DNA from: Botryllus schlosseri
Lineage: Eukaryota
Assembly: GCA_051294905.1 (NCBI GenBank)
Contig: CM119371.1
Span: 25,670,001-25,734,000, forward strand
Length of the DNA: 64,000 nucleotides
Direction: 5' to 3'
Below, one piece after another: positions 28,101 to 64,000 of this stretch. The position numbers and the translations under genes are program-made. Each line of letters starts with the position of its first letter. The stretch's first letter is position 1. The notes beneath the pieces are model-generated. The model saw only the letters and a list, made by a program, of their open reading frames with translations. It ran no database searches and was not told the DNA's origin.

Positions 28101-28657
28101 CATGTTTTGGAAAATTGGACAATAGACTTCCATAGTTCTGTGATGTCCGGGTTCGTGCTTTGGATTTTCCAGAGTCAAAATGTCTGAATAAAACACCTCC
28201 TCGACGATGGTTGGTATGTGGATAACGGGGTTCGGAAGACGGTTGGATTTATGTCACCCATCGCGATAACAATTCCAGGTCGAGTTTTCCTCCCGCATGT
28301 TTACTATATTGTGTCGTTATTGGTCAATGTATGTCTCGACATTCAGTTTGAAATCGGAAACCCTGATAAAGTATGTAACAGGATCCGGATATCAACTCTG
28401 AATCGATAAACCAATGAACAATATTCAAAGTAAACATGTTGCATTCCACGAAAAAATACCATCCAGACATACGTCGCGCTTGTTTGCCCACATCAGTATA
28501 CGCGTAAATGGAGGTGTGTGACATTGCATGTAATGTGTTGGTATACAAACATCGATCCACAGACATTATCATAGCCGGTAGTTTTGATGTAGATCGAATG
28601 TCATCACACCCGATAACAATGTCATACCAATAAGCCACATTGCAATGACTCTGAGTC
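22117..28657 (+). repeat. Left arm of the giant inverted repeat (6541 bp)
   Basis: Reverse complement of 29570-36071; mirrored ORF pairs in the track (22155/35743, 22781/35185, 25275/32688, 25926/32007, 28218/29818). Confidence 0.97.
27425..27795 (+). repeat. ~41-bp tandem minisatellite (taacaaacctttttcacttggaaatatattttttctctggg)
   Basis: About 8-9 units; mirrored at ~30435-30765 and present again at ~63755-64000. Confidence 0.95.
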
Positions 28658-29187
28658 CGCGCTATTACATCGATATTTCGACACCGTTCACTGATTTACT
28701 CGATGGTGTTATCGTGTTGTAACATTACAAGATAGTCATGGCCCTATCTCCGGACAGATCACCCAGATCGCTAGTGACTGGATACATCGGTCAATATCCG
28801 TCGTGTTGTCCGAAGTTTTCTGCTGCAGCGTTTGACCTATGTGAACTATCGAAGTATGGGTGCTCGAAATGATTGCGATCAGTCTTTCAGTCACGATGCA
28901 TGGATGTCGCTACTCCCACATAACGACTCCAGATAAATATCGCGAACAGTGATTCTGCAAATCTCGGACTGATACTGTGATTCAATAAGGTGTGTTTCTG
29001 TGGAATGAAGACTGCAATCGTACACCACAATAGAACACTACCTCGCGATTTCACACGCAATCATAAAACACATCATCGTAAGGATTCAGTTCGTCCGGTG
29101 ACATTTCGAAACGGTCATCGCCACGAGAGATCGGTATCATTTTGAAACGACATCGTCACAAGTCTATTGACGTCGATTCTGTTGGTC

Positions 29188-29469
29188 ATGTCAATCCGTT
29201 TCACAATCCACCGTTTTTCAACTCCCCGCACCATAGTGTTACGACACAGACAAGAAGCGTCGGTGGAAATAATAAAACACGGAAAGCACACTTTGGTGTT
29301 ATTTGACATGGATTTTACACCCGACGAGCCTTACATTCGAGCGATACATTGGAATGACACTTGTATTATTGACGTAGAAGGAGCAGAAATGTATCGATTT
29401 ATTGGTTTCGTACATATCCAACAAAAACCAGGGTATGTGATTGTGCGTGGTTCGCATATTCGACTGTGA
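29188..29469 (+). CDS. Small hypothetical ORF in the unique central spacer
   Basis: ATG-initiated ~93 aa (MSIRFTIHRFSTPRTIV...GSHIRL) with protein-like composition; no family recognised. Confidence 0.3.
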   Translation: MSIRFTIHRFSTPRTIVLRHRQEASVEIIKHGKHTLVLFDMDFTPDEPYIRAIHWNDTCIIDVEGAEMYRFIGFVHIQQKPGYVIVRGSHIRL

Positions 29470-29569
29470 ACGCTCTATTGGTATATGCTGTATAGTTCAC
29501 TTTCACCGTCGTGCGAATAACCCATGTTACGGTTCGATGTTTGTGTGTCTGTATGTCACGCTTCAGATT

Positions 29570-35500: not shown

Positions 35501-36071
35501 GCTATCGCGGTGAAGTCACGACTGTGAACAGCAGACTAATCTATAGGTGCGAAACAGCGGTACGGAAGGTGCGAATAATCCGAACTGAAAGTATTATCCA
35601 GCTAGCAATCAATAGCGAGGAAAGACTTAGAACACGATCGGTCATTTGTCACGACTAAACTACATCATATATAATAATTTACGATATACACATTAACAAA
35701 GGTTCATTCACATGACTATTTACTTGATACATATTCATCACCGTGCGAGAGATGCCTGAAAGGGCGATTCACGGCCGCACCCATAAGAACACATGGCGAG
35801 TCACCAGAGACCGCGTAAGAATACACGACAGGCGAATCACCGCCACCGCCTATAGCAAAAAAGGCGAGTCACGACCCCGAGTTTTCACGGCGAATGACCG
35901 CCACGAGCTATACCTGAAAGGGCGAATCACGGCCGCACCCATAAGAACACATGGCGACTCACCGCCGAGAGGGGGGTCTAAAAAGGCGAGTCACCACCCC
36001 CGGTTTTCAGGCGAGTCACCACCCCGCCCATAAGAACCCCAGGCAAATCACGACCGATCTACATAACTACT
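29570..36071 (-). repeat. Right arm of the giant inverted repeat (6502 bp)
   Basis: As for the left arm, with scattered substitutions and one fewer ~41-bp unit. Confidence 0.97.
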
Positions 36072-38398: not shown

Positions 38399-41039
38399 TT
38401 CCCTCCCTTTTAAGAGTACAAGGTAATTTATGTTCGCCGATAGAACTCAATTTGTTTTCGAATTCTAAGCGGATAACGTCAGCCCGACGTTCGAGCAGGA
38501 CTATAGTTGCAGGACGTTGTGCCCTATTCCTGACCAATGGTTGCTCACTGCTCAGGTTGTGACCGTTGAGGCTGAACAACTTCATGTGTGGCTGTACCAT
38601 TAATGGTGGAAATCAAGCGTGGTTGGAGTTGGTTTTCATGCTTTCTCCGATACCCATGATCTGTTTTTATAATGTACACAACACGTCCCAATATTTCCGT
38701 CACCACCCCAGCGCGTAAACCGAGGAACCAATCTCAAAATGCCGTAACTGGTTTCGATTTATCGAAGGGCGAGCACAAACTTAACAAATTGCGTGGCTGT
38801 TGACCATGTAAAATCTCAGCAGGCGTTTTCTAGTCTATGCCCGGGTACGGTGCACATCGGTACGTAGCGAGAAGTGTTTGCAGCTCGAAGCTGAGATCTT
38901 TTTCCACGTCGCAATTTTTTATCAATCCAGTTTTTAAAGTCTGGACGAAGCGCTCCGCTTCCCCGTTCGAGGCAGTTTGAAAAGACGGTGATGTGATATG
39001 GTTGACTGCCAAATTCGAACAAAACGTATCGAATTCATTCGATGTGAATTGCGGTCCGCCATCCGTGACGATTATTACGGGCGAGAAGACTTCCCTCAAA
39101 ACGTTGATTACACGCAAGGTCGTGGTAGATCCGACATTCATTACTTTAACGTAAGGATATTTCGAATGCGCATCGACGATAACAAGAAACATTTTATTTT
39201 TCATTGGACTTGCGAAGTCCAAGTGAATCCGTTCAAAGCTTTCAGAGGTTTTTGGCCATTCGCGATACTGACGACCAGGCGCTTTCATTACTTTACGGCA
39301 AGCGTCGCAACTCTTCGAGATTTTCAATGTCGCGATTAATGGAAGGCCATGCGATGTAACGTCGAGTCATCTGCTTCATTTTCGCGATACCCCAATGTCC
39401 TTCGTGCAACAATGATAAGGCTCTCGCTCGAAGTGACAGCGGAATTACTACGCGCTGAAAACCATCAATATTGAGCATCACTATGTCTTCGTGCAGAGAG
39501 CGAATGTTTGCGAGACGAAAACCAAGTGAAATCATCAACGTGCGTCTTTGGATTCCAGTTACGATAAGTGACAGATAATTTTACTAGTTCCATGGTTTTG
39601 TCTTTCAGTTTCGCGTCGCAGATTTCATTGCGAGTTAACGGTAAGCCATCGAATGCCATATTAATAGCGTGAACGATCTCCGCGTTTTTACGAATTTCCA
39701 GTTCGTCAAACTCAACGTCGGGACCCTTTGGTAGGCGAGATAAACCGTTGGCGTTTCCGTGCTGATTAGTCGGTTTATTGCGAATATGGTATTGGTAAGC
39801 CATGAGCGTTAGTGCCCATCTCTGTAAGCGTTGCGCCGTAATCACGGGAATTTTCATGTCCGGCGAAAAAACAGCTAAAAGCGGTTTGCGGTCCGTTACG
39901 AGCGTGAATTTTCTACCGTACAAGAATTGACGAAATTTAGTGACTCCGTAAATGATTGACAGAGCTTTCTTCTCTATTTGAGAGTAGGATTTTTGCGAAT
40001 CGGAAAGCTTTTTCGATGCGTGCGAGATCGGTCTCTCTTCGCCACCGTGCTCGATTGAGAGGACAGCGCCGATTCCGAATTGAGAGCATCCGTTGACAAA
40101 ATGAGATGCTTGTTTACTTCATAATGAGCTAACTGCGTAGCGTCGATTACGTCGTTTTTGAGAATGCAAAAAGCTGCGTCACAGTCCGTATTCCAAATGA
40201 ATTTAGCATCTTTTTGAAGAAGGCGATATAACGAAGCGGCTTTATTCGTAAAATTAGGAATACACGCGCGATAATAATTGACTTTGCCCAGGAATGCCTG
40301 TAGCTGGCGAACATCCCGAGGTTTAGGCAACTGTTTGATTGCTTCAACGGATTTGTTAGACGGGCGTTTGCCGTCCTTGTCAATTATATGATCAAGATAC
40401 TCGATACTACTTTCGAAAAATTCACATTTAGCGAAGTTAACGGTGAAACCATATTCTGTGCGGCCTGAGGCGCTCAAAGAGTAGCGATAGGTTGCGAAAA
40501 TGGCCGCGTTCATCAGTGCCAGTAACGATTATGTCATCGATAAAACTAGCAACACTGGGTAAGGCGGCGATCATGTCATCAATACAACGTTGAAAATTTG
40601 TGGGACTAGATGCGACTCCGAAACACATGCGTCGGTAACGAAAAAGACCGAATTGCGTGTTTATGACACACAAATTCTTCGCATCATCATCTACTTCTAG
40701 TTGAAAATAAGCATCGGCAAGATCAATTTACGTGAAAATACAACCAACCGGTAACTTATGAAGAATTTCATCTAAGGAGGGCAGGGGATGTTGATCTATC
40801 TGAATTTGTTGTTTCAATGCTTTGAAGTCACCACAAATGCGTACAGATCCATTAGACTTAGTGACGGCAACAATAGGTGCTGCCCAATCACTGTAATTGA
40901 TTGGCTCGAGGATACCTTGATTGACTAATCTACTCGATTCGGTTTGAAAAGCGATTTGCCTTGCGAAAGGCAAAGGACGTGGCTTGTTAAATACGGGCTT
41001 GGCATTAGGTTTCAAGTGAATTGTCACCTTTGTCTTGGT

Positions 41040-42402
41040 CAGGGGTTCTCAACCTGGGGGCGCGCCCCCCTTGGGGGGCGCTGGAAGCTGTCAGGGGGGC
41101 GCGAGAAATTGACGAAGTCAATATAGGGGGGGGGGGGCGCGAGAAATTGACAAAGTCGGTATATATTGTACGTGTCTGAACATGTGTTTCACATCCATTA
41201 TGAGAAGACGATTAATGAAGATGAAATTTATTCCATATTCAAGAAAGCTTGCAACTCTAGCAACCGCGCTCAACGGAGTATAGTCTGATTTCAACTTCAT
41301 TTGAGCAATTTTTTGAAATTCTTCGGAGATACAGAGAGCAATTCCCACGTGTAAGTCATTCATTGCTTCATAGCTTTGACAGTAGCCTAAAGCTTGTCGC
41401 GCTGGGCAGCTGTTGTTAGTAGCTTGCGAACTGCACTGCCTAAGACAGACTTAGATCCAACATAGGTGTCCCGGTGTCGGCCTCAATTAGGCTATAAATC
41501 AACACAATTTAATTAATTTCCAAAACTGATCAAATTTAGCCTGGCAGGACAGAACGACGCCTTGCTCTCTGTACTCACTACCAACATCAGGATTAGTCTC
41601 AGGGTGACCTACCTTGAAATTAATTAATGGATGTCTTGTTCTATGTTTTTTTGTTATTTTCAAATAAGTTTTGAGAAATTTTTCAGCAATGTAAAAGACT
41701 CAACAACTGGAATGCAGATTCAAAATTGGCGTAAGATATACCTTATGTATACTATTAGATCAGGGGTGGGCAGCCTGCGGCCGTATAGAAGGGAATTTGA
41801 GCGGCCGTCGACGCCTAATTCAATTAGTATGTGTTGGCGGCCGTAGACATGGAAATTGCAATTACTAATTCACTCCCGCATTTTCGAGAGATTTTAATTA
41901 ATCTTGAAATTTTCTTCGCCCTCCGCACAATTCAACAAGAATTCATTTTTCGATTTTAATGCAGTAGCGCCCTTCTTAATCTGAGCCGGAATGGGAATTG
42001 TCAAGAAATTACAATTCGTTCGCGGCCCTGAAAATTTTTCGCGCTTCGCGCGACAATGCGCAGCTCCCCGCAACTATTCATAACATTGCCACTCGCTTTT
42101 TCGGTGCGCACAATAGGCCATTGTGAAAAGTAGAATAGTCTGGAGTTCACCGGAATGGATATGGACAGTTTACCATAGGAATTTTGCGTCCAGATGGTTC
42201 ATTGCGGCTATGCCCTGGAATGCAGCCTTTCGCTACATAAGCAATCGAAATGCGGCCATGATTATCAAAAACGTTGCCCACCTCTGTATTAGATGATGTG
42301 CTGTTTTTGACATGACGATAATTGAAAGGGGTTTCATGGGGGGCGCGAATCTTTTGACCATCTCCAAGGGGGGTGCGTGTCAAAAAAGGTTGAGAACCAC
42401 TG
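41040..42402. mobile_element. hAT non-autonomous element inserted in Gypsy pol
   Basis: TIR caggggttctcaacc / ggttgagaaccactg; perfect TSD gtcttggt. Confidence 0.9.
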
Positions 42403-43976
42403 GTCTTGGTGCATCGTCTTAATACATTAGAGAAAACAGAGGGAAACTTAGACTTGAAAGGCTACCAATTTGTCGTTCGAATCACAAACGTCAATAGTAT
42501 TACAGGACTGCGATTTGACCATCTGCGAGGAAATTGCATCCAAAGCAGACGTTCCCTTAGCGGGCATGGAGAAAGCATCGCTCCAATCGAGACCAAAAAT
42601 GTTTTGCCCACGGTGTTCGTCGAGAACTACCAATTTCAAGCCAACTCGAACTTCGGAACCCACCTGCAGCGCAAATACCTTTCACTTTCAGTGGCTTGTC
42701 GATGTACGCTACGAAAGAGCAATGGTATGCTGAGAGTTTCGGAGAGCCAAAGTTTTGTACCCAGTCAATCCCACCATGGAGGCGGGTGCACCAGTGTCCC
42801 ACTGTGTCGGCACGCAATGCCGTCGATGCTGGAGTTGATCCAGAGCTGGTTTCCTACTCGTCGATATAGTTGATCGATGTCGAAGGAGAGGAGCGGCGTT
42901 GAGCAGAAATTGACAGATGTGACCTGTTGCGTGACACTGCGTTTGGTCGACATGCCCACAGGTTTGATGTGACCTTTACGACCACATTTCTGACATACTG
43001 CATGTCGATATTGACAGTCTTGTCTCTGGTGATCGATGAAACAGCGGCTGCAGGATATCAGTATTTCGGGGAAGTTGCCCTTAAATGGATTTGGAAGGTT
43101 TTTTCCCCTTCTGATAACTTCCCGTCATTTTATTGACGATGGAAGTATCTTTACCGTTACTCTCGCCCTGGATAACCGTATCAGATTCAAGCGGTCTCAC
43201 GTATGTTGCGGCTACTTTGAGAACACGTCGTCGAGGGACTGATTGGTTTGTGTTAAGACAATGCCGTCTCACATGTGCGTGCGGCGTATCTTTAATGATG
43301 AGATCGTGCATTAGTTATCAACGTAGCTCTGATCACAGCCTTCTCTTGAGCATGTGAAGTTGCAATCCTTGGAGATTCCGCGTAGAGCAGCGATCCAATC
43401 GGCGTACGACTGTCCCGGCTGCATTTTGCAATTGGAAAATTCGTACCTGGCTGCTTGCACATGAATTGAGTCCTTGAAGTGAGTAGACAACTTCTCAGTC
43501 AACGCGTCGAAGGATTGTGCACTGACATCAGCAGCACCAAACAAGTTTCGTATGAGCGAGTAGGTTTCGGGTCCAACCCATGGGAGTAGACACGCTCTTT
43601 TCTTCTCCATGTTGGAAATGCCGTAAATTGCTAGGTGATGGTTGAATCGTTGCGGATACTGGTCCCATTTCTCCTTTGATTTTACAAACGAATCTAATTA
43701 CGAGCGGTAGCTTCAGATGTTCACGCACCGGGACTTAACCTCTGCGCTAATGCTGCAGCTTTTGCTGTGTCATATCTTCTTTGTGCTGTGCTCGTTTTTG
43801 GTCCAAATCTTATCTGTGACCAGCATTTTGCTGCTCCAGCTGTGCTTTTTGATTTGCCTTTGTTTCATGTAAGCTCGCCATCATTGCCTACTGCTTCTCG
43901 AGCAGCTTTAGCATACCTGAATCCATGCTTCATCTTCGTCGCAGAAATAACTATGAATCCGACTTCTGACAACAAT

Positions 43977-44720: not shown

Positions 44721-46937
44721 CAGTGCTCTTCAACCTTTTTCGACGTGGTACACCCTTTTACCGTTTGCTCAAAACTCGTACACCCCTGTTCATTATGGGT
44801 CTTCAAAAATGACAATTTTTCTCAAATCGTACTGGCTACTTGATAAAATTGTTAGGTTACCTAACTTAAGCCTACACACCAAATTTGGCTCAATTCCAAC
44901 CGGTAGCCGCATTGCTACGGGAGAAGAAAGTTTCTATTTATTATATAAAATAAATAACGAAAAATTTGAAATTTTACTGTTCACCCCATGAAAGTATTAG
45001 GTTGTCTATAAAAACGATGTTCTTCAAATTTGGTTCACTTCCGACCAGTAGAAGCGGAGTTATTGCCGTCAAAAAATTTGGATTTGAATAAAATAGTATT
45101 TGGTCACAGAGTGTATTCGCAGCCAGTTAAGCCGCCCGCCACGCAAATTGGAATTTATTTCGTGTCAGCCGCAAAACAGCATGGCATTACGAACGTAAAT
45201 CAACCTAAATGTAACAGTATTGGGGAGAGAGTAGGTAAAGTTACTGCTGCAGAAGCGGTAATTCAGATCAGCGATGATAGCAGGCGCACCAGCCTACTGC
45301 GTATCAGGCCTGCCCCACACCACACCACACACAGTCGATAGTAGCACTTGGGCTGCAAGAGATGTCAGTAACCTCAGATCGTATGCCGCTATACACAGTC
45401 TATTGTCGCTAATTTGCATCACTAATAACAAAATACCAAATTGCAAATGTATGGCGAAACATTTGACATAAAATCGGCATTTTAAAACAAAAGGTTTTCG
45501 ATTTCAACATGGAAGCTGTTTCGACCCTGGCTGGCTAAGTCACTTCATTTATGTGCATTGCGGTATTTATTAACGTCGGGTAGGAAGTACCGATTCAAGA
45601 AGTCTGAGCTATCGCGGCGGTTCCCTCAAAAATCACTAAAAGACAAATGACTAGCTGAAAACATGTTTGTTAACTGCATACTTTCCAACACCAAACGGAT
45701 CCATTGGTCTATTGCCAACAGCTAAATGAATAGGAGAAATGCTTATGACATCACAATCAAGCGGTGTACAGTATTACACTTGAGATAACATCGTACCATA
45801 TTGCTCATTAACCTGTGCGTAAACCTGTAATGGCCCATAAACCTGCCTTTGTGATAGCTAGCCATCGGCTCATTGTAATTCGGATCTCGTACACCCCTGT
45901 ACACCCCATCCAAGTGGTACACCCTTTGCAAATTCTGGTACAGGGTGTAGGGGAGATGGGGTACCGATGGATCAAAAATTGGAAAATGATCGCTGGCCCC
46001 GAAATGTTCAGCCGAAAACAGCAGATCTTTTGATGGCTCAGCACTTTGATACAAGCTCTACGTATCGCGCACATATACATGAATACCCGTCTTTTCAAAA
46101 AATATTTATGGACGTTCAAAATTTGTTGCTCGAACATGTCATCGGTCCCCACCCGGTGGGTCCAATGACACACGACCCGGGGACCTATGACACATATACC
46201 CTAAAAAACTCAAATGTGACTACTTTTCTTGCTCAGTATTATAATCTAAGCTGCAGCAAGCCAAAGAAGAATGTTTGGTCGCAATTGTGAAAAAATAGAA
46301 TAAATATTAACTCAAATGTTGTCATAAAATCACGTTTCGATTTAGGCTCGAACTTATAAATTTGTGGGTACATACAAATTGCCCGAAATCGACAGTGTGA
46401 CTTCCAAATACCTCGTTATAGCGATAAAACATCATATGCAATTATTAGATAAAGATTTTCTGTACGTAGGCATGTTTCATCGATTTCATGATTAGTATGC
46501 TTGATTATTTTGCTTGATTTGGCTATTGTATCATTGGTCCCCACCCTACGAATTTTATACATGAATCCAAAAAAAGTCCACTCAACGAAAGTACTGAAAA
46601 AATATTAGGTGCCATTATATAGCCTGATACAAGCCCTACACTTCACAATAAAAATTATCGCTGGTTTGTTCGTGTTGAAGGTTACAAAGAAAAATGTATA
46701 TGTCGATCTAAATTTAGTTCAGACCCCCCAAAACAAAAATCATCTGTGAGAGACCCCATAGCTCGCCCACGTCTAATTTTTTTGTATGTGAGGAAAGATT
46801 TTGCCAGCATGCAATTGTAGACAAGTTCACGGAGTGTAATCATGGAGTTATCATAGAGAATTTTCAAAGTATTTTCGGTCCCAGTGATCCATCGGTACCA
46901 CATCTCCCCCTACAACAACCCCGGTTGAAGAGCACTG
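44721..46937. mobile_element. Composite hAT non-autonomous element (2.2 kb)
   Basis: TIR cagtgctcttcaacc / ggttgaagagcactg; perfect TSD gtctatgc; contains nested repeats. Confidence 0.9.
45950..46910. mobile_element. TA-flanked non-autonomous DNA element nested in the hAT element
   Basis: ta|ggggagatggggtaccgatggatc ... gatccatcggtaccacatctccccc|ta. Confidence 0.8.
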
Positions 46938-48379
46938 GTCTATGCCCTTATGCAGACCAAAGACTTCGCTATATATACAAAATACATATAGGTTTACTTG
47001 TTCATAGGCGCCTAAATGACTGGCGCCGAATGTTCCTGTCTTTGCAATCTGAACCTAACAAGACAAATACCATCCCGCTAAGAAAAAATTTATGCCAGTG
47101 AAGAAATACCAATTTCAAATCGTGTGCGTCTCTTAGTTTAGAAGCCTACGTTTGGGCGGTTCTATATTTTTTAATATAGCAGACTGGAAGTCACGAAATA
47201 ACATCATGTAACGAAGTCATATCAACGGTTTCGCCTGCCCGAAGATGTTTAATCATTATTTACGGGCCCTTCCGTTTTCAAGACACTTAACTCAGCTCTA
47301 CCGATAAATCTAATAACGTGAGTAGAGAGGACAATAAATTGATAGCATATTATATATGCAATCGCCGATCTGATGGACCGATTTTATCATAAATTATCGA
47401 AAATCTTCGCGCGTGGCGCTGGCTCACAATACAGTACCGGTAATTTCGTGACAAACGCGAACAACGTGATGGGGTGGGTCGTTTTATCACCCTATGGAAG
47501 CCCAAGACCCACGTTTTTGGGGCCTGACGAGGTGCTGTTTCGTTCCTGCCAACGGGTATACGCCCGAAGATGTTTAATTATTATTGAGTCGACCTACCTT
47601 TTCAAACACACCTCACTCAGCTCTAACGGCAAATCTGATTACGTGAGCTGAGAGAAGATAAAAATTGATAACAATGTATGCAATTCCCGATCATACTGAC
47701 CGATGAAAGCTTGAACTCTAGAATTTTTGCGCGCTTAGGCGGCAAAAGCGATCCACAAAATAAACTCCCAGTGAACATGATTATTAGTGGTAAACAGGGG
47801 TAAAAGTGTATCGCCGGAGGGGGGTCTGGGGGACGAAACCCCCCAGACGTTCGGACTATAACCCTATGGGGGGCCCAAGACCAAAGTTTTTTTGGGGGGC
47901 TGACGAAGTGCTGTTACGGCCCTACACACTATAGGAAACTTAATCCAGTATTACGCGATTCACGAACGAATCGCAATAGCGCGTAATAAAGGCATATTAC
48001 TATTAATTATATCCTCTCGCACCCCATGTAATCGAATTTATTGCTATAGACTTAGCTCAATTTGTAGACATAAGTTTGTAAAGGAAACATTACACTGGTC
48101 AAAAAAAATGAAAAAAAATTTTTGGCAGAATATCTGAGAGCCGTTTCAGGGGCTTTCGAGATTGCTGATTACCAATATCACATTAGTTTTGCCAGATTGG
48201 CTCTTGTTCAGGATATATTTATACCCCTAAAAAAGCCCAAAATTACTGTATCTACCCCATTTCACTTGATAGGAAGAAAATCGTACTTTTTATTCTAATT
48301 TTATACTGCGCATAAAGAGATAGTTGACTATGAAGAACCCTCATGTCGTTCTCAGTCATTCTATCAATAAAAACATGAC

Positions 48380-49446
48380 CTGGTGCGAAATATTTGTTTG
48401 TCAGCGAGAAAAGTGGAAGGAAGCTAAAATACGAATTGCTACAACAGCTAAGCCTAAACCCTACGCAAGCAAGGTTTAACGAGATAACCATAGAGCTCCC
48501 AAAGCGTCCAGCAACACATCTTATTGTCAAAGGCATAGCATGTTAAACTAAAAAGGACACGGCAGTTAAACAACTGAGCGAATATGGATTCGGAACGGTT
48601 GTCAATCAGACAAGAGTATTTTACAAGAATACTAACTATTACAACGGCTTCACTAACATCTGGATGGAGGATTTCGGTAAAGAAGATATGCCAGAAAGTA
48701 TGATTATTAATGGTGTGAGATGCTGGACCAAGACTGCTGTAGATGCATATCAAAAGCGATGCTACAACTGTAAGGCGGCGGGTCATATGGTCAGAGATTG
48801 CCAAGCCGACAAATTGGAATGCGCGAAGTGCGGCGGGCTTGGCCATGGCGCAGAAACATGCAAAGCAAAACGTAGCAAAAGACAAAGCGATCACGAGGCT
48901 GGAATCGAAAAGGCTGAGGGAGTCAATGATCAAATCGCAGATAAACTTGTGAGAGAAAACTCAGACGAACCCCATGCTGGTGAGAGAATAACCGACGAAA
49001 CGAACGAATCGACGAAAATAACAACAGAGAAACCAGTTGACCTGAATATGAGTCAGAATGAGGACACGAACAGAAATCAAACAGCGCCGAATAGACCGGT
49101 GATGACGAAATCTTACACATCACCGGACGCTGCATTCGGGAATGAAGACACAACATAAGAACAGTCCGTACATCCTCAGGTCAACGAGGAAAAACACGAA
49201 TCAAGCAAATCAAAAAAAACACAGACGGCCGAAATGGCGCTCAATAAAAGACCGCCTAATGCCATCAAAGGACCAAAATCGAGCGCCAGCTGTGATAGGG
49301 CGGCGAAACAACAAAACGGAAACAGAGTAACGACCAGAAACACCACAAGCAACCAAGCAATAATAACAAAACCGAATATAAATGGGATTAAAAAAGACAA
49401 CACGAAAAAGAAGACAGCCAGAATCCCGCAAGACCCCAAAACATAA
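48380..49446 (+). pseudogene. LINE ORF1 (gag-like), disrupted
   Basis: LIVKGI...LSEYGFGTV...YYNG; CYNCKAAGHMVRDC; CAKCGGLGHGAETC; internal stop and frameshift. Confidence 0.8.
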
Positions 49447-50324
49447 TCAATGGCGAACCTATTGAAGCTAGCATCGATTAACGTAAATGGATTATCAAAC
49501 AGACTACAGGATTTGGAACAATGTATACAGACTTCGAATTTGGATATATTATTGATTCAGGAAACGCATAAGATCGATAATGTGGATATACGTAACTGGG
49601 CAGCCGATATAGGATTTATTATCTACTTCAACACAAAGAACGAAGTGAGACAATATTCTGGCAATGCGATAATGATCAAAGAACATCACGAAGGTAAAAT
49701 TTTTCGTCACTACAGCATGATAGAAAACCGTGCACAATGCCTCTGCATTCAAATTGAAAAATGCCCAATAGCTATAATAAATATTTATGCCCCGTCTGGA
49801 CAATCCGCAGATGCGAGAAAGTTACGTGATGGTTTCCTAATTCAACTCGAATCAGAAATCCATGAACTTGAAGTCCCGGTTATATTGGGTGGTGACTTCA
49901 ACCGACTTATTGACAAAAAAGACACTCGAATTAAACAGAACCTCGATGTTAGAAGCGCCGAGAGACACTTTGAAAAGCTAACTAACGACGCGGAACTGAT
50001 TGACGTGTTTAGGAGTAAACATCCTCTTGCCGAAGTATTCACTTACGTCACTGGAAAAAACGCGAGGAGACTAGATCGTTTCTACGCAACTCGTGAACTC
50101 GTGGGCCCTGTTCAGAATGCAGGACATGAAAATAACCTTGTGGCTGACCACATAAGTCCGACAATAACACTTGCAATTGAGCCAGGCACTCTATGGGGAA
50201 GAAAAAATTGGAAGTGTAGTAATGACCTTTTGCGAGATGAAGTGTACCGAGATATAATATCTAATCTCATAAGCTTCGAAGAAAATAATATCCAACACTG
50301 TCACGGAATTCAACAATGGTGGGA

Positions 50325-50594
50325 GTGGCGAGATAGCGCAGTGGTATAATCCGCGGCTGCAACACCAATGGGTGCGGGTTCGAGTCCGACCGAGGTCGAC
50401 TTCCGAAATTCGATATCTAAGTGTTGGAGGTTTACCTAGGCTCCTCCTCACCACCTCATCAGCGGTGTCTTACAAAAGCCTAGGGGTGGGCCGTGCTATA
50501 AGTCGGCAGTTACGGAAAAATAAGAAGAATATCGGCCTGGTGTAAATGACCATAGCAGTCGACACACCATGAATAACCCAAAAACAAACAAACA
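50325..50594 (+). mobile_element. tRNA-derived SINE
   Basis: A-box tagcgcagtgg, B-box ggttcgagtcc, (aaac)n tail, 13-bp TSD aacaatggtggga (50312-50324, 50595-50607). Confidence 0.9.
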
Positions 50595-51616
50595 AACAAT
50601 GGTGGGACAGACTAATAGAATTGCCAACGTAAGCAAGAGATATGAAATAGACAAATATAAATCTGTGGCTCCCAGATAACGTATCAGAGGGTAAAGGGAA
50701 AATTGCGCATGTTAACCAAAATTGACCATTGCGAAGGTGAACCTAACACGATGAGACAATTTTGGCAAGAATTGAAGACCAGAAGGCGCAAGACCGAGCT
50801 TAAAGAACTCCTGCTCAGAGATGGAACGGTAACGACTGACCGTAATATTATTGCTAAACAGATTGAACAATTTTACGCAGAATTGTGGACCCGACACGAC
50901 GCCATTAATTCGTACGTTCAAGTCGAATATCTATCATCGTATCAGCACGACCGCATGCACGGGAGAGACAATGAACAAACATCGGTAATACAATCTAGCG
51001 AAATATTACAAATACTGAAAGCAATGAACAGGGAAAGGTCACCGGGTTTCGACGGCCTAACAGTGGAATTCTACCTTGCTACGTGGCAAAACATTGGTTC
51101 GAGATTAGCAGAAATCATAAACAACGCGCTAATATACGGAAACATACCGCATAGCTGGAAACGCGCTAAAATTATTCTGATTCACAAAGGAAAGGACAAA
51201 AAGGATTTAGCGAACTGGCGACCCATTTCGCTGCTAAACACGGACTACAAAATAATGGCGAAAATTCTCAATAACAGACTGGTTGAGGAAATTACGAGCA
51301 ACATCAACATGACGCAGAAAGTGGGAATTCCCGGAAGACAAATGGACGTGATACACAACAATGTGAGTGCAATTGTGAATTATCATCAAGAAAAACCTTT
51401 AGAAGGTTATATAATGACCATAGACGCAAGGAAAGCCTTTGATGAGGTGGACCAACAAATGCTTTTCAAAGTGATTGACAAACTGCCCGTCCCGGGAGAA
51501 ACTCTAAAAGTGATCAAAGCCACATATGATAATCCTATTGCGACCCTCGAGGTTAACGGCCTCCAAGCAGCCAATGTAAATTGTACAAGGGACATTAGAC
51601 AAGGATGTCCTTAGAG

Positions 51617-52036
51617 CAGTGTTCCCCAACCCCGAGTCCGCGGACTCATTTGAGTCCGCGGAAGGTCCTGGGTGAGTCCGCGAGCCCAGTAATTTTAAGT
51701 AACTTTATCGGCACACACGTTGACAGATTGTCAACCTTGTATTATGCAGTGGTGACAAATAGCGATGTCGACAGAATTCGTCACAGGCGTTGATCTAACC
51801 ATTGTGATTCGCAACTTTCTTCACCTTCAAGTCACATAAAATAAGCCGAGTCAATGACTTGAGTCGAGTCATGCGTAATGACTCGAGTACAAGTCGAGTC
51901 AATCCAAATATTGACTCGAGTCCAGTCGAGTCATTTTCCCATTTCAAGAAAATGACTCGAGTCAAGTCGAGTCACAAAAAAATCGTGACTCGAGTCTGAC
52001 TCGAGTCGAGTCATGACTCGAGTCATTACAACCCTG
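51617..52036. mobile_element. Chimeric hAT MITE remnant inside the LINE RT
   Basis: Left end cagtgttccccaac with gagtccgcg motifs; right end ...ttacaaccctg with many gactcgagtc palindromes; no TSD. Confidence 0.7.
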
Positions 52037-53909
52037 CTATGCACTAACGACAACATCAAAGGTATCCGAATCGACGGGATAAAGCATAAATTAGACCAAT
52101 TTGCTGATGACGTCACACTGTATCTAAGAACAACTGACTCTATTACCACAGTCCTTAACGTATATCAAAGCTTGCATAGAGTGACAGGTCAAGATATCAA
52201 CACAGACAAGACGGAAATCCTACCGCTGAACGAAAAATCACGTATCAGACTGCAAGAAACTGCGCACGCACATATGCTAAAGCCAGTAATTAAGATACTG
52301 GGCTTATACCACGGAGAAAGCGAACTGGAAATGAACTTCCACAGACTCTGACAAGGAGTCGAGAAAAGCGTAAGGCATATTAAATCAAAACGGCTTTCTT
52401 GGATTGGTAAAATAACGGCGATTAAGGCATACATAATTAGCAAAATAACTTTTTACATATGCTAACAAGCAAATTCCAGGCGACAAGCTCAAGCAACTCG
52501 AACGCCTCGTCTTCGGCCTACTGTGGAGTCCTGAGAAACTCGAGCAAAAAAGCAGAATGCAACTGATCAGAACTAAGCCAGAAGGAGGAATTGATATGCC
52601 AGATATCGAATCTGCAACACAAGCAAAGAGAGCAAAAAGACTACAACAACTGAGTCGACTCGAGAACCCAATTGATATCTGCCATGCAAAAGCGATGTAC
52701 AATCTGACAACGAAGGTGGGCGATATAAATTGCAATTTATACAACAACCTCTACCCTCACAGAAATACATTGACGGAGGAATGGAAGAAGGAAAAGGAAA
52801 TCTTCGACGTAATTAAAAGCCAATCACAAGATATACAAGAACTAATCCAGAAAGAAATGTACCAGATCCTTGTTAAAAAAAACGCAACAAGGAGGAAGCC
52901 GCATGGTGGACTGGAAAGAGATGTCTGGCTATACCAACCCAATATCAAATATCACATTGACAACAAGAAACGTGAGATTTCGTATCGCATTAACACTGAG
53001 AGCTACTTTACAGGCTCCAGAAAAACCAACGCAGGCTGGGTACGAAGAAATGACGCCTACTTGAAAAAAAAATGCAAATTCTGTCAACACGCCGAAGATA
53101 CTCTGCGTCACACCTTCGCCGAATGTTCAACTTACAAAAAACTGTTCTCTCTTTGTAATACAGGATCTCGAGAACGACCTGCAAACGACTATTGACGCTA
53201 CACCCGACGAGATCATGAGCTACGTCTACGACGGACCACAAGCTCCGACTATAATACAAGCTTTTATGAACGTGAAAACCCTTGTGTGGGAATGGAAAAA
53301 TGCACTCGACATACAAAATGAATTCGCCCAAAATATTGACGAACGCATCTACTATATAAGAACTAAAATATACCGAATAATTTAAGCGAGCCCATTAAAC
53401 GCTTGTGCGATAAATCGTATTGTATTGATCGACCCACAAAGCCCAACCAATCCACCTACAACCTATCCCAGCCCCCCAAACCTCCCATCCCATCCCTCTT
53501 TACCCCACCCCTAAACCACTAAACCCTCCCCCGACCTACCCTATCCACCACCCCCCCTACCCTATTCCTACCCCACCTACCACCACTCCACCGAATTTAT
53601 ATGAAAAACACACGCAAACAAGCGCCAAGTACTGTCGGCTCCTACTACGACCGCGACCACGAATGGACATCGACTGCTGCGATGAGATGAGCCGAGCGAC
53701 TACGACCGCCAACTTACGACGGCGCCTACTACGACCGCGAATACAAATCCGACTTCGACAACGGCTGATACGAGATGACCTGATGAATGATGATGGGGAA
53801 AGACTTTCTTTATGAAATTTTGATATTTTATGTACATATTTGAATAAACATCTCTAAAACGGTCATACCAAAAACTCGAAAATTGGTATCCACAGCTATC
53901 CTGCTAGGC

Positions 53910-55773
53910 CAGTGGTTCCTAACCTTTCCTCCAGCGCCCCTGGGGGGCGCTGGCGATTTTGAATGGGGCGGAAACGCTCAGGGGGCGATATGGGGGGCGC
54001 TGGGCACAGGGGGGCGGTATGGGGTGCGCTGGAGAAAATGGCTTCGCAGTAGATGATGTGGTGGTAGGACATATCCTTAATGAGTATTCAGAGAAAATGA
54101 ACACCGAAAACTTCGTTATATATAGCCTACAAAAGACATATAGGTTTAATTGTCCATGGGCGCCTAAATGACTGGCACCGAATATTCCTATGTTGGCAAT
54201 CTGAACCCCAGAAGACGAATTACATCCGGCAGGGAAAAAATATATGCCAGTGAAGAAATACCAATTTGAAATCGTGTTCGTCTTTTAGTTTAGTACGATT
54301 GGGCGACAGGGATATCTAAAACTAGATATTCTTGTTGGGCGATATCCCTGTTGGGCGATTCTATATTTTTTGATAAAGCAGACAGGAGGCCACGAAATAA
54401 CATCATGCAACGAAGTCATACCAACGGGTTCGCCTGCCCGACTATGTTTAATTATTAGTTACGGGCCCTACAGTTTCCAAGACACCTCACATTGTTCGCT
54501 CCACGTTTTGATGCGTCTGCGCACACTCAATAAACTCACTGCGCAGATTCTTGGACAACAGTGCGTAACGACTAAAAAAAGATCAAAACTTCGGATTAGT
54601 TGTGCGCAACGTAGATTTTCTGTGCACAGATACCATGTCACTGCGCACATGAGCAGCTTAGACGGAACATTGCACCTCACTCAGCTCTACCGGTAAATCT
54701 GGTAACGTGAGCAGAGAGGACAAGAAATTAATAGCAATATATATGCAATTCCCGATCTTACTGACCGATTTTATCATATATTATCGAAAGTTTTCGCACG
54801 TCGCACTGGCTCGCTAAACAGTACAGCTGATTTCGTGGCAAAACGAACAACGTGATGGGGGCGGTCGGTTTATCACCTTATGGGGGCCCAACACCCAGTT
54901 TTTTCGGGGGGCCTGACGAAGTACCGTTTCGTTCCTGCTAACGGGTATACGCCCGAAGATGTATAATTATTATTGAGGGGTCCTACCTTTTCAATTACAC
55001 ATCACTCAGCTCTACCGGTAAATTTGTTTACGTGAGCAGAGAGAGGATAAAATTTGATATCGATATACATGCAATTCCCGATCATATTTACCAATTCAAT
55101 CATTATTTATTGAAATTTTTAGCGCTTCGCGCGTCTAGGCGGGAATACCTGGCTAAGTAAATGGACACCCAATGTAGATGACTAGTATCAGCAAATAGTG
55201 GATAACCGAAAGGTGGTCTGGGGGCGAAGCCCCCCGGAAGTTTGGTTTATCACCCGATGGGGGGGACTAAGACCAACGTTTTTTGGGGGCTGACGAAGTG
55301 CTGTTACGGCCCTGGTAACGAATTAATTGTACCTACGGGCACGCCCGAATATGTTTAATTATTAATTACGTGCCCACCATCTTCCCATACAACAGCTCAA
55401 TCAGCGCTACTGGTAAATCTGATTACGTGGGCTGAGAGGATAAAAAGTTTATAGCGACTTATATATGTAATTACCACCTATACATTCATGCATTATAGAA
55501 AATTTTGTTACCTAGGGCGACCATGCCACACAAACTTTGCTCACAATCGAAACCCCATTACGGGGTTTTTGGGGGCGAAGCCCTCGGAAGTTTGGTTTAT
55601 CACGCTATGGGTGCGCAAGGCAATCATTTTTAAGGGGGATGACGAAGTGCTGTTACGGCCCTCCCTCTTACTCATTGTCTTTATTACATTCCTTACAATA
55701 TGCGGTTGGGGGGCGCTGGAGCACGATAATTTTTGAAAGGGGGCGCTGGAGGAAAAAAGGTTAAGAACCACTG
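53910..55773. mobile_element. Composite hAT non-autonomous element (1.86 kb)
   Basis: TIR cagtggttcctaacc / ggttaagaaccactg; perfect TSD tgctaggc; nested MITE ~54490-54672 (flanks cacctcac). Confidence 0.9.
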
Positions 55774-56797: not shown

Positions 56798-58470
56798 CCA
56801 AGGGCAGATAGTGTTCTCGCTATTGTCTGAAACCGAGGTACATTGCTCACTGTGAAGAAATGATAATTTGCAATGACATGGGCCTCACGAAAGAGATTTT
56901 TCTTTTAGTATGGTCTCGTACGCGTCAGCGATACTGATATCATTTCAATAGCGCAGTCTTTTTCTGGGAATGGCGAAATAACATGGTTTAACAAAGTTAT
57001 AAATATAATAACAATGGACTAACTTGAAGGTAATCTGCGAGAAACTAACGAATAGTATTCTTCGCGTGGCGTGGACATTGCATAAGATTTACTGTACAAT
57101 TACATGCCGTGAATTGCCGAAGTCATCACTTCCATCAGGCAAATCTGATCACGTGTGATGAGATAGGATAATATGCAAAATATGCAAGTACAAGCACCAG
57201 TATTTTTGAAAAAATCCATCCCCTTGCAAACGTTTATTGGCATATCCTTCAACTGCGCACTGTGAGGCGTTGAATTAAATCAGCTTTTCCGCAGAACGAA
57301 TTTTGATTTCATTCGAATCGTTTGAACGGGAATGTTCTGTCGATAAGGTCATACGCTAATATTGTTCATGCTTCGGTCAGACTTTAATATTCGTATCAAT
57401 ATAAATTACTGTATGTCTTGATAGTAATTAGTGTGTTGCCGGTATTAATAAGACGTCACATCAGTGTTTGAACGCGATAGGCCTACATCAGGAGTCACCA
57501 ACACGCGGCCCGCGACCTGAATTGAAATTTCGGAAGAACGCTTAGTAAAGCATTTTGAAATGCTGATGATTTCAGTTTGGACATATTGTTGTTGGCATTC
57601 AATGTGAGCTATTCTCCTATGCCCCATCTTACTATTGCCTACTAGCCGTTACGGCTTCGGCGATTGTAATATCATTCCATGGAGGAAGAATTTCCAGATA
57701 TGAATGAGCAATTGAGCATATTGCCTTGACGTTCTGGCCCACCATTGCCCAGACCGAGACGCTTAGAAAACGACTTCGGGCTCCCCAAAACACCAAGCTT
57801 TACGAGAAGATAGTTTTCCAGCATGTAAAGTGTCTATCTAATCACACTATCACAGTATAGATTCTTTAGTCCAGAGGTCTCAAACTCAAGTGTGCTCGCG
57901 GGCCAATTCCTACTTTTTGATGACGCCGCGGGCCGCAGTACCAATAATAGGGGAATTCAATGTATTTCAAAGTAGGCCTTATTTCCGGTTTGGAGCATAG
58001 GCCTTCTCCTGATAACTAGGCTATATTAATCATGTCATTACCGAAGTCAAGAATCAGCGTTTGATTTTACCTTCGAATTTTGGAACTGGTCAATAACAAC
58101 TTGAACACAATGGATACTGTGCGATATAGCAATAGAAATGTGTAATCGCCGAAGAATCCATTGGTGTTACAGCTGTAAAGCGGAGGATACGACTAATTAA
58201 TACTCGCCACATTAAATTGGCGATAATGACATATATAAAGATACCCAAGATGACTCAGCATGTATCCAACTATACATCAAAGGGGTAACATAATGCCGAT
58301 GGCGGTTGCCATACCTACCTGCTTAGATATCTAAATAAGCTACGCAACGCAAGCTACGACTTTTTGATATTTTACCATTTCTTATACAAGTTTTCATAGT
58401 TTGTTAATAGTGTCCTATATGGTGTGGACACAAGCATAAATCTCACGGCTCGGTGAAATTGGTCTACGGC

Positions 58471-61400
58471 AGTAGTATATACGATCGCTCGCATGACGCA
58501 ATGGGGTTCTTATGGGCCCGCTCGTGACTTGCCGCGAAAACTCGTGTTGGTGACCACACCCTTTTAGACCCCCTATCGCTGGTGACTTGCCATTGTTTCT
58601 TATGGGATCTCTGGTGACCCCACCCTTTCAGGTATAGGGCTCGCTCATGACCTGCCGTGAAAACTCGTAGTGATGATGGTACCCTTTCAGACCCCCTATC
58701 GCTCGTGATGTGCCAATGGTTCTTATGGGATCTCTGGTGATGTGTCATTGTTTCTTACGCGGTCTCTGGTGATGTGCGATTGGTTCTTATGGGATCTCTG
58801 GTGATGTGCCATTGTTTCTTATGGTATCTCTGGTGACGGCACCCTTTTGGGTATAGGCTGCGTCGGTGATGTGCCTGTCATGTATTCTTACGGGATCTGT
58901 GGTGATTCGCCATGTGTTCTTATGGGTGCGGCCGTGAATTGCCCTTTCGGGTGTAGGCATCTCTCGCACATCGTACTTTCGCATGTCGTACTTTCGCGTA
59001 TAGGCTGTGTTGGTGATTCGCTATGTGTTCTTATGGTTGCGTCGGCATATCGTACTTTCGGGTGTAGGCATCTCTCGCACATCGTACTTTCGCATGCCGT
59101 ACTTTCGCGTATAGATTGTGTTGGTGATTCGCCATGTGTTCTTATGGGTGCGGTCGTGATTCGCACTTTCAACCATCTCTCGCGTGGTGTTGAATAGTCA
59201 CCAACAATAACCGCACAAACGGAAACGTGGCTTGTTGTGAGGATTAAGCAGTGCGACCTATATTTCGAATGACCTGCGTGTGGAATTGTTTCACGACCAG
59301 CCACATGCTACTATCGATTACACTAATCCAGTCAGCGCTATTACATTCAGGAGTATTCAGTATTCAGCAGCGACACGAAAAGCAACCAACAAATAACCGC
59401 GCTCGTAAATTAACACTTCAAAAAGTGTAAAATAGATTACAAATCCCGCGATCGCTAACAAGATAATGTCTCGGGTATAACCATTTTAGTGATTTGGTGT
59501 AAAAGACATACCGATCGCTCACAAGGTAATATTTCGGTAATTAGTTTGTCACAGAGCCGTCGCAGACGGTGATTCGAAAACCAACAATTTGACACTTTCT
59601 GGTGGTCGCTATATGTTTTGACACTTCGAACAGCGGCTGACTTTAGTTGCACGATAAGAATTATGAGAATATTCAATCAATGTATCAATTTGTCAAATCG
59701 AAATGAAATTCACTACACAAACCGAGTTGATTCGTATTTGAATGTGTTAATTCGGTACAATTCTAATTATTTTGAGAAATCTTTTCGTGATCTTTTGATT
59801 CGACCATAACCCGAATATTACTGACGCCGACTTTCAGCTACATCGAATTATTCGCACATTCCACGCCGCTGTTTTCACACTTATAGAATCAATACCAACT
59901 ATAATTCTACAAGAATCAAGAATCACAAGTATGTGCATTATACAGTAATTGTCTTTATCAACATGAAATCAAACTCTTAACAAAAACACGCATCTTATCA
60001 CTCGTCAACTCTATCATGAAAACCCTCGAACCCGTATTATTAAGAATGTTATAGTACGGTATCGGAATCCATTCGCGAGATGTACTAAAGGTAAATCCAA
60101 ATAATCCAGAATGAAATATTTGGACTTGACATAGTGTGAATAGAAATAGGTTTGACAAACATGACTACCAACTTTGATCCAGTCACATTTCAAGATTACA
60201 CTTTGAAACAATCCTTGAAACTTACAACTCTATTCACGACTGAGTTTTCCATTTGTCAAATAGAGTTTCAGTAAATACTATCGCGATATTTTAATGTGTT
60301 ACTACACACAATAGAATCAATCAATGAAATATCGCCCGTTGTTGTAAATATTTCTATCTTGACAACCACTTATGCATACCGCGATCGAGTTGTGACGCGA
60401 TGAGTTAAATCGGAATATTTCAATCTATTTGTCGAAACCTTGAACAAACTATCAGGTTATTTTTTGTTGCAATCGAGTGATTCCCATACACAAAAGAGTA
60501 AAATACAAAAAACCTTGTCAAGTCAATCCGTTTGTAACTTACCCAACCAAAACAAAAAGTATCGTTACGAAAAGTAGTCAAGACTACGCAAGTAATCACT
60601 ACAACCAACAAACATATCAAGTTCGGTTTTAGGCATATACCACCAACTCGTCTTATTGGAATGTCAGCAACTCTTTACGGTCATAGTTACAACCACATTA
60701 TCTAATTTACCCGACCAACTCGTCATGATCATTCCTCAAATCAACACAAACGCGATCACCGACTTGAGTTAACCACAAAACGGCATCAAGTTTTTAATCC
60801 ACTTGTAGCTGACAGATTATTCGAATACATCGATGGAGACTATTATTGAACTCGTCGATATTGTTACTTCAACAAATTATCGCTTACGCCGACTGCGAAA
60901 GTTAATATCGAATGGTAAGGATTGATCACATATTTGTTGAACACAGACATGACAAAGAACATGATCGGGATTTTATAAACTAGTCATATTACTTTTCACA
61001 TCTATCAATATCAGAATACAAGTCATCAAACTTTTTTGTTAAATGTAACATAGCACTTTTGGAATCGGATTCGTTATAGTCGTACAAATTGTATTAAACC
61101 CAACATCAAAAGGACTTTTTTAGTTCATTGAAATCAAATCATTCGTCTTCGACTTGTGCTTTTTTAGATTGCCCGCAACAATTCGTTTCGAGTGAGTTGT
61201 AACCAAAGTCGGGATATCTTTGTGTCCACAGATATGGAAGATGAATATAGCTAACACAATCACGAATCGACGTTTCAGAGTATTTCACGGATGTAATAAA
61301 CTTGTTAGTGTCACCTATCTAAAAGTACGCACGCGTTCGATTTCCATACCGACTGTTGCGATGTTTAGGATTCACTTACAATAACCACGGGTGAGGATTT

Positions 61401-64000
61401 TACATCAATGTCGTTACTGTCGGAATTCACAACAGAGAATTGAAACATTACACAGGGTGAAAATATCTCTTTGATATCAAAGCACTACACCAAGTACACG
61501 ATTAATACTCAACTCCGCTCACACTTTCTATATTACATGCTAAATGTAAAATATCACGAGGTCGCACTCTAAGACTTTGATCATTACAAAAGTAAATTGG
61601 AATATGTTTGCTAGATGCATTCAAATCAGCTAGAAATGTCTGGTGCACAACAATCGTAATATCAAGGAAGTACTTGCTACACTATAATTCACTAAACGTG
61701 TTTTGTATTGTTGTTCATTTGTAGTATTGATTGTTTTTGAACCCTCAAATAATAATTCCCGACATGAAACTAAGCCGCCGAAAGTCGTTACCATCACAAA
61801 GAAACAATTTACACGATGTTTGCCAAATGTATCCTATAGTTAGGGGAACTGGAATTATTTGTAAAACACACTCTGGTAAAGAAATCGAAAAGATATCCTA
61901 CACCTAAATCTGATAAAACCATTTTGCACTTTGTGTTCGTCAGTAGTATCCATTTGAATTTTTCAATTTCCTCTCATCAAAGTAGATGTAATCATAGTCG
62001 CTAAAGAAATTACTTGGATGTGTTTGAATTCTAGACATAGTTCCAATTTACTCGACGCAAGACCCAAGAACAACCGTAGTTTACAACCGTGCACACATAT
62101 CCAAAATATCGCACACTATGCTATTCCTAAAGTACAAACACCCGATACAAAATATTACTTGTTGTGTTGTTGCGGCATCATCTTCACAATATCACCCTCA
62201 ATACAAATGATGTTTATGTGTAACATGCTATTGATTTGAATCACACCCACCTGACGGAGGAGGATTTACTCAATCTTTACAAAATGGATATTGACCAACA
62301 TCACATCATCGGATTGTATCTGTTTTGTTGGATATGAGTTATGTTAGTTTAACAGTAAACAAATTTCACCCTCTTGGATTATGAATTCAATGCGTTAGCA
62401 GTCATTCGATATTTTGTTTGTGTCAACTAGTTACTTTGTATGTTACTCCACAACTCTTACAAAAGTACGAAGGATATTAACATCGCACTAAGTAATTAAC
62501 TTTACTCGATATTCTCGCATTACGAAACTAAAGAATGGTTGGTTAGACTCTACAAACTGTTTCGATATCACAAGACCTTTATTGTCTGAATGGGTGTTCA
62601 TGTATCTTAATAATCAAATAGTTCAACACAGAACTAGTACTAACAGAAACATCAGAGTTGTTTACACAAAAGTTTGTATATGTGCACAGTATGCGAATAC
62701 CATGTGTAAGTCCAGCACAATTGCGGTATCCATCCGAGTTTAGTTAACACAAATTTATTACAACGGAGTCACGTAAACTTTCGTGAAAGAAAAGCATACT
62801 CACTCCCAGAAGGTTATGTCAATGCCATAGCAGTACCCCAACAGCAAAGTACATATGTTTTCTAGTCACGGTCCTTACATCTTTCACATAGATCAATCTA
62901 CTTTGCTAACGAAAAGTGCTGAGTCATCACATGATCACCCTCACAACAAAACAGCTGGTAGATATTATCATTCAAAATATTCCTAACCCTTTACACACCA
63001 GTGACAAATCATACAACGAATATGTTTTGTGGGTCGAATTGTTGTTCAGCGTCAAGTCTCCATGTTGGAGCGTACATTAAAACAGCGCAGTCACAATCCA
63101 ATTAAAACCACGAATCTATTTTCATTTCGTCACATACAGAAAAATAAATTTACTTTCCCAAAACATACTTGTAACCAATCGCTTTCATTAAACATACAAC
63201 ACCATAAAAGTATTTACTTTCTACAACATAGACATTCCGATGTAGTCAAGAAATATTTTTATTAATCAAAATCATCGACTTCTGTTTACGGCGTTAGTGT
63301 GTGCATGTCATATATGTGGGATCCGTATTAAAATGGACACGACGCGACTGAATGTAAGGAGATAGAAGTCTATCGCATAGATTTACATGCGGTCTTCGCT
63401 ACGGTTTCAAAAAACTAATCATCTCTTTTGCATTGATCGAGACCGGCCATGATTGTGTTTGTCATATGCGAATGATAGGGTTACTGTCAAATCTACATAC
63501 AACAATCTTAATCTTCTGACGATCATAATAGCAATTTCATTTTCCGCCCCTTCATAATTGTACAACTCGGTAACTACGTTTAACAAGACCAATCACACTA
63601 CCGGCGTCGAACACAAGATACCTACCCAAGTAAAAATATCATTCTGGTTTGGACAACTGACGTTTACCTGTGTAAAATTATCATTTTCACTTGGAGGTCC
63701 ACCGTTACCTAACTAAAATACCATTGTCCTTTGGAGATTTATCGTTTACCCAGTGTAACAATCCCCTTTTCACTTGGAAATCTATTTTTGGCCTGAATAA
63801 CAAACCCCTTTTCACTTGGAAATCTATTTTTGCCCTGGATAACAAACCTTTTTCATTTGGAAATATATTTTTTCTCTTGGTAACAAACCTTTTTCACTTG
63901 GAAATATATTTTTTCTCTGGGTAACAAACCTTTTTCACTTGGAAATATATTTTTTCTCTTGGTAATAAACCTTTTTCACTTGGAAATATATTTTTTCTCT
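58471..64000. mobile_element. Left part of a second, diverged Polinton-type element of the same family (runs off the window)
   Basis: Starts agtagtatatacgatcgctcg...ggggttcttatggg like 22117; same subterminal motifs, colinear shared blocks and the same ~41-bp array. Confidence 0.8.

Follow-up and report, generated by a model that had tools for sequence, protein, structure and literature searches.

The last 5.5 kb of a 64-kb window of Botryllus schlosseri DNA (contig CM119371.1, positions 25,670,001 to 25,734,000; the window is the whole stretch analysed, and coordinates below are counted within it) raise the question whether a long palindromic element lying complete in the same window is a one-off or one member of a family. 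The complete palindrome (22117-36071) is referred to as E1, and the terminal stretch (58471-64000, + strand), which runs to the window end, as E2. Judged by their sequences, E2 and the E1 arm are diverged homologues, and the two represent clearly separate lineages with a common arm. E2 is probably the left arm of a second palindromic, helper-dependent, non-autonomous Polinton/Maverick derivative, of which the window holds the first 5.5 kb.

E1 served as the reference. It measures 13,955 bp, has (AGT)2//(ACT)2 ends, is flanked by a perfect 6-bp target-site duplication (TSD; GTTAGT) and is palindromic over 93.5% of its length, with a left arm of 6,541 bp (22117-28657, +), a right arm (29570-36071) and a unique loop of 912 bp between them (28658-29569). 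When the arms were aligned to each other, 56 mismatches were found in 6,501 aligned sites in addition to one 1-nt and one 40-nt gap, corresponding to an identity of about 99%. The chance of a given 6-mer such as the GTTAGT duplication is about 3e-4. Across E1 the GC skew is mirror-symmetric, and its left-arm sign recurs in E2. The ratio of observed to expected CpG is 1.24-1.45 within E1 and E2 versus 1.08 outside. A trivial explanation would be that fold-back reads produced the palindrome during assembly, in which case the family model would also be an artefact. Although no read contig spans 57900-59500, E1 combines its perfect TSD with differing flanks, a unique loop and 56 differences between the arms, E2 is diverged and is itself no duplicate, and the protein encoded in the E1 loop was found in independent assemblies, which makes an artefact extremely improbable.

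Homology of E2 to the E1 arm

E2 starts with AGTAGT (58471-58476, +) and is directly preceded by TACGGC (58465-58470, +), a candidate 6-bp copy of the target site, both as read in the initial annotation. Maverick terminal motifs were taken to be (AGT)2 or (AG)3, and (AGT)2, the form described in PMC8097293, was present at the left end of E2 and at both ends of E1. Among the read-contig pieces listed, one of 32 starts precisely at 58471. The sequence GGGGTTCTTATGGG is located at 58503-58516 in E2 and at 22148-22161 in E1, and in E2 a GC-richer subterminal repeat zone (58503-59196, +) begins at the same position, which contains TTCTTAYGG and GGTGAY motifs with periods of 32, 111 and 123 nt and is longer than its counterpart in E1. 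TTCTTAYGG was found nine times in E2 (58507-59139), three times in each end of E1 and once elsewhere in the window. Alignment of the terminal ~200 nt of E2 and E1 yielded a score of 174.5, while 300 shuffles gave 13.4 ± 10.1 with a maximum of 56.5. The proposed sharing of GGGGTTCTTATGGG and of the subterminal motifs was borne out. Beyond the ends, only 9/60 and 12/60 positions agree in the adjoining 60 nt, showing that the flanks of the two elements are unrelated.

Further inward, E2 was compared with the E1 arm by BLAST, and 2,856 of its 5,530 nt were aligned to 22117-27700 (2,803 of 5,530 nt when the whole E1 arm was used), whereas none of ten other stretches of the window aligned to the arm. 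The main aligned blocks are 65-89% identical. They lie in a non-coding part of the arm (59392-63043, +) in which blocks conserved in E1 are separated by unalignable DNA, and include 59392-59559 (83% identity), 60048-60260 (75%), 60656-60826 (87%), 61414-61870 (82%) and 62521-63043 (78%). The homology extends from the terminus through a tandem array of 41-42-bp units (63610-64000, +; ~9 units up to the window end) that is common to E1 (27320-27930), and the onset of this array lies at nearly the same distance from the terminus in E2 (5,213 nt) and in E1 (5,235 nt). E2 can thus be followed along the E1 arm to within ~1 kb of the position equivalent to the E1 loop, which is 3.8 times further than the longest terminal inverted repeat (TIR) given for intact Mavericks in the relevant passages of PMC8097293 (1,447 bp). 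Across 14 anchor blocks the order is kept save for three local swaps (Spearman 0.98). The colinearity with the left arm of E1 suggested by the initial annotation therefore holds for the order of the blocks and for the array offsets, but it is patchy and covers only about half of E2.

Since the subterminal zone of E2 is longer and about half of its interior is unalignable, E1 and E2 have to be regarded as separate lineages. It had also been considered that E2 might be an autonomous parent from which E1 arose by a single rearrangement. This is unlikely, because the E1 arms differ from each other at 56 of 6,501 sites while E2 and E1 are only 65-89% identical over about half of the sequence, a divergence too great for E2 to have been the direct parent or template of E1.

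No inverted repeat was found within E2. The termini and the 41-bp array showed no unusual folding (z -0.68 to 0.30), and a search of the whole window against Rfam gave no matches.

Coding content of E2 and of the E1 loop

The absence of recognisable genes over the 5.5 kb of E2 had been noted from the letters and their open reading frames (ORFs), and was confirmed by several lines of evidence. The longest stop-to-stop frame in 59301-63600 comprises 93 aa, close to the median of 91 aa in shuffled sequence, and such frames do not exceed 139 aa anywhere in E2 or 135 aa in E1. Two frames of 130 and 139 aa at 58805-59307 were considered as genes and rejected, as they sit on the subterminal repeats. 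No Pfam family was detected in any of 12 read-throughs that together span 59200-63701 in six frames, while retroelement ORFs of the same window, used as a control, gave matches in eight of eight cases. Nineteen ORFs of E1 and E2 likewise produced sub-threshold Pfam matches only (E 0.017-0.086). Mismatches between the lineages were distributed evenly over the three codon positions in four of five conserved blocks (13, 5 and 9 in the fifth), and stops interrupt 23 of the 24 frames of four conserved cores. The conserved blocks of E2 are therefore non-coding, with room left for short exons or highly diverged genes; they may represent signals under constraint or patches exchanged by recombination.

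Of the Polinton core functions, pPolB, integrase, capsid, ATPase and protease were all absent by Pfam from the 12 read-throughs of E2 (59200-63701) and from six read-throughs of the inner part of E1 (27900-29572); BIR/IAP families were also absent from the read-throughs of E2 and of the inner arm and loop of E1. The visible part of E2 is not an autonomous Polinton. It might nevertheless form the left end of an element with one arm only. This could be a Polinton, autonomous or decayed, in which a long accessory region is poor in genes, or else a non-autonomous derivative of the ordinary kind with short TIRs, and palindromes like E1 would arise from such elements now and then. Such an element would fit with a far end beyond the window, with the half of E2 that could not be aligned to E1 and with the region of low conservation, 2-5 kb long, that Mavericks may have behind the TIR according to parts of 10.1101/2022.07.12.499685. 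However, 4.3-4.5 kb of E2 yielded neither a Pfam match nor an ORF longer than expected by chance, and intact vertebrate Mavericks are described in PMC8097293, in the sections relevant here, with TIRs of 46-1,447 bp and with accessory regions that do bear ORFs. E2 is moreover far too diverged to have been the template of the 99% identical arms of E1. We consider a single-armed E2 unlikely.

The loop of E1 harbors an ORF of 93 aa (29188-29469, +) that matches no Pfam family and has intact homologues at 96-97% and at 62-66% identity. A near-identical copy (97%) is present in another assembly. In a profile search five of six candidates were returned, four of which were 62-66% identical with intact frames of 90-91 aa. 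Within the 64-kb window the ORF occurs once, so that any equivalent in E2 would be situated past position 64,000, and in the ESM Atlas the protein had no match of at least 0.9. Two AlphaFold models had mean predicted local distance difference test (pLDDT) values of 39 and 48 and suggested beta strands only, at low confidence. Three long partial phmmer matches were rejected as chance, as were three weak metagenome profile matches of 38 residues, one of which was inspected and lies in a bacterial-looking ORF of 323 aa with, by eye, a WD40-type repeat. Six of the eight homologues are located on contigs of 922-1,117 nt, near the size of the loop; this was given no weight, because the median contig of the collection is about 1 kb.

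By the conservation of this reading frame, the family is not wholly gene-less. The initial annotation had described 5.5 kb with no recognisable genes and an architecture shared by a family rather than a one-off. For the arm sequence the family stands, as E2 is a diverged homologue and the variants among the reads described below exceed two alleles, and the lack of genes applies to the 5.5 kb of E2, but the model has to be amended for the loop of E1, whose ORF has intact homologues at 62-66%.

Copy number and insertion site

Read contigs of four of the 24 runs listed were aligned on 57900-59500, an interval that comprises host flank and element together. The numbers of contigs per run were 18,813, 3,161, 3,116 and 170, a depth that is not to be taken as a copy number. 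Single variants within E2 (58848, 59172 and 59439) were each carried by 47-86 contigs in one run. As this is more than a single-copy locus or two alleles could yield, E2 is multi-copy. Pieces of E2 with 0-2 differences were also present in runs of other studies. Marine, hot-spring and urban metagenomes shared a small proportion of words with the sequence, to which no weight was given. Dispersed copies lacking enzymes, as looked for in a non-autonomous derivative, were found, with two members at unrelated flanks in 64 kb and with the variant contigs.

To the left of E2 lies a high-copy host repeat (57872-58470, +) with a candidate 8-bp target copy at 57864-57871. This repeat is ~8-10% diverged from the contig pieces listed and starts with CAG, presumably like a MITE (miniature inverted-repeat transposable element) of the hAT/Charlie type. 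The window contains no inverted end of this repeat, and E2 therefore seems to be inserted within it. This yields a further prediction, concerning the far flank of E2. If the proportions of E1 apply, E2 would have an arm of 6.5 kb, a loop of ~0.9 kb from ~64,990 and an end at ~72,400. The far end would read ACTACT, followed by TACGGC and then by the remainder of the interrupted hAT-like repeat.

E2 might also belong to the palindromic family as a copy that is truncated, deleted in its centre or interrupted, with the mirror end missing or displaced. Deletions arise readily in long palindromes that contain tandem arrays, and a 40-nt indel in the array already distinguishes the two arms of E1. The terminus of E2 is, however, intact, and the subterminal matches with 0-2 differences in contigs of other studies suggest a young copy. 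A broken copy is quite unlikely.

As a whole, the window consists of eukaryotic DNA rich in repeats, with a GC content of 33-48% and remnants of long interspersed nuclear elements (LINEs) and Gypsy-type elements. A LINE at 48547-53195 (+) contains a zinc-knuckle ORF and endonuclease, reverse transcriptase and zf-RVT pieces, broken by stops; related arrays with units of 325-390 bp lie on either side of it (46976-47923 and 54128-55662), as if the LINE had been inserted in or targeted to an array. A frameshifted Gypsy-like long terminal repeat (LTR) retrotransposon with Pfam matches to RNase H and integrase occupies 38833-43697 (-), and a 250-nt direct repeat of 93% identity at 38149 and 43982 may represent its LTRs. 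A further reverse-transcriptase fragment (Pfam RVT_1) was found at 6086-6667 (-). Two smaller elements also have inverted arms. The first, at 4252-5018, is a near-perfect palindrome of 767 bp with 368-nt arms (99%) and a 31-nt loop, has a relative at 44787-45101 and is probably a foldback MITE; the second, at 19250-20777, is 1.5 kb long with inverted arms of 415 nt (100%) that contain poly-A and 29-bp repeats, and its start at 19258 resembles what we take to be a TIR of the hAT type.

Proposed nature of the elements and comparison with known systems

E1 has the ends and the TSD footprint of a Polinton but none of the enzymes and is therefore best read, by its end motif and TSD, as helper-dependent. 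Both ends would serve as origins of protein-primed synthesis by the DNA polymerase B of a helper, whose retroviral-type integrase would produce the 6-bp TSD. The palindrome may have originated when synthesis from one Polinton end changed template and copied that end back. The displaced single strand of such an element could fold into a stem of 6.5 kb with a loop of ~0.9 kb, an extreme form of the racket-shaped single-strand intermediate proposed for Polinton replication (passages of PMC4196379), and folding of the stem would keep the two arms of one copy similar even as the lineages drift apart.

Several points weigh against E2 being the arm of a second such palindrome. Its right half, with the right terminus and the second copy of the TSD, would fall beyond the window end at 64,000, and the window stops ~1 kb short of the expected loop. 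About half of E2 is unalignable to E1, with long gaps, and the inner architecture could differ. E1 is the sole two-armed element examined, and a homogenisation of arms across lineages is conjectural. The poorly conserved region of 2-5 kb lies, in nematode Mavericks, behind one TIR (10.1101/2022.07.12.499685, in part), and a first 5 kb poor in genes is hence still compatible with an element that bears genes. The ORFs of the window scanned by Pfam included neither an autonomous Polinton nor a helper gene. Three DNA patterns and two protein queries run against viral contigs returned no locus of a copy or a helper, although one query counted four matching stretches (zero loci); one DNA pattern had no match in metagenomes of the Joint Genome Institute (JGI), and the loop-protein profile gave only the three weak, rejected metagenome matches. 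Among the loose contig ends listed (24, with 1,124 more existing) none lies at 58470/58471, which gives no verdict on the far end.

A stronger form of the helper-dependent reading is that E1 and E2 are long-separated lineages of a true satellite of endogenous polintoviruses: hairpin genomes of ~14 kb, sized like the helper, that replicate by snapping back over their whole length, retain the non-coding blocks and the 41-bp array as signals acting in cis, have in their loop a single orphan gene under selection and are perhaps packaged in the helper capsid. We regard this as a possible but tentative extension. If it applied, no integrating hairpin satellite of an animal Polinton would have been described before these two, and the racket model of replication could be read out from a natural system.

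Long, internally repetitive TIRs also raise the possibility of a family of the Foldback (FB)/Galileo kind, mobilised by a cut-and-paste transposase and unrelated to Polintons. Such elements are defined by very long TIRs with internal tandem repeats (PMC3573991, in part), a feature shared by E1, and no Polinton protein is encoded in E1 and E2 as read. On the other hand, the combination of (AGT)2//(ACT)2 ends and a 6-bp TSD is the signature that Mavericks show most often in the data given in parts of PMC8097293. E1 differs from Foldback and Galileo in its end motif, in the length of its TSD and in its size of 14 kb, as a 6-bp TSD and (AGT)2//(ACT)2 ends were found in place of a 7- or 9-bp TSD and ends of the P-element or Mutator type; both the motif and the TSD length indicate the integrase of a Polinton. 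The TSDs of Galileo and FB are 7 and 9 bp long. A Foldback-like origin is very unlikely.

Compared with intact vertebrate Mavericks, for which the same parts of PMC8097293 give a length of 12.7-24.6 kb, E1 is alike in its ends, its perfect 6-bp TSD and its 14 kb, and E2 shares the (AGT)2 start. Unlike these elements, whose TIRs measure 46-1,447 bp, E1 has 6.5-kb arms, and no core genes were recognised in the 5.5 kb of E2 or in the ORFs and inner part of E1. Non-autonomous Polintons have been named, for example Polinton-1N1_DR (PMC9341505, in part). E1 and E2 resemble them in having Polinton ends without enzyme genes and in their presumed movement in trans, and E1 additionally has the conserved orphan ORF in its loop. 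A non-autonomous Polinton of zebrafish is said to be ~11 kb long with TIRs of several kb; should this hold, there is a precedent for the palindromic form. Tlr1 is sometimes regarded as a non-autonomous Polinton (PMC5499653), such elements are apparently absent in anole (PMC3014272), and TIR remnants occur in C. elegans (10.1101/2024.01.15.575659), each as stated in portions of these sources. In the Polintons of pierid butterflies TIRs of ~2 kb extend inward and duplicate internal sequence, as in E1, but they hold core genes in a gene-bearing element, whereas the arms of E1 make up 93% of the element and have no coding signal (10.1101/2025.02.07.637071, in part).

No description of Polintons palindromic over the whole element was found in titles and abstracts of the papers listed by literature searches, a scope that excluded the founding paper of 2006 and Repbase, and the string 'palindrom' is absent from the portions of PMC6431247, PMC11296320 and PMC11131425 available to us. 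According to parts of PMC8097293 and PMC11131425, surveys cap TIRs at 2.5 kb and demand a long loop, or start from protein matches. As either approach would miss elements like E1, these may be common and overlooked.

A parallel is offered by the terminal-protein replicons of phi29 and adenoviruses, in which snap-back or copy-back defective genomes consist of a palindrome of one duplicated end with two origins. E1 and E2 differ from these in being integrated, flanked by a TSD (in E1), multi-copy and diversified into lineages. The replication of Polintons, with protein priming and a racket intermediate, has been proposed and, in the parts of the papers cited here, not demonstrated. With E2, the family gains another lineage and a clear-cut prediction for the far end of this copy, although E2 does not by itself prove the architecture. 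An element that is a palindrome over 93% of its length and exists in diverged lineages would be a natural probe of the racket model and of the sequences required in cis.

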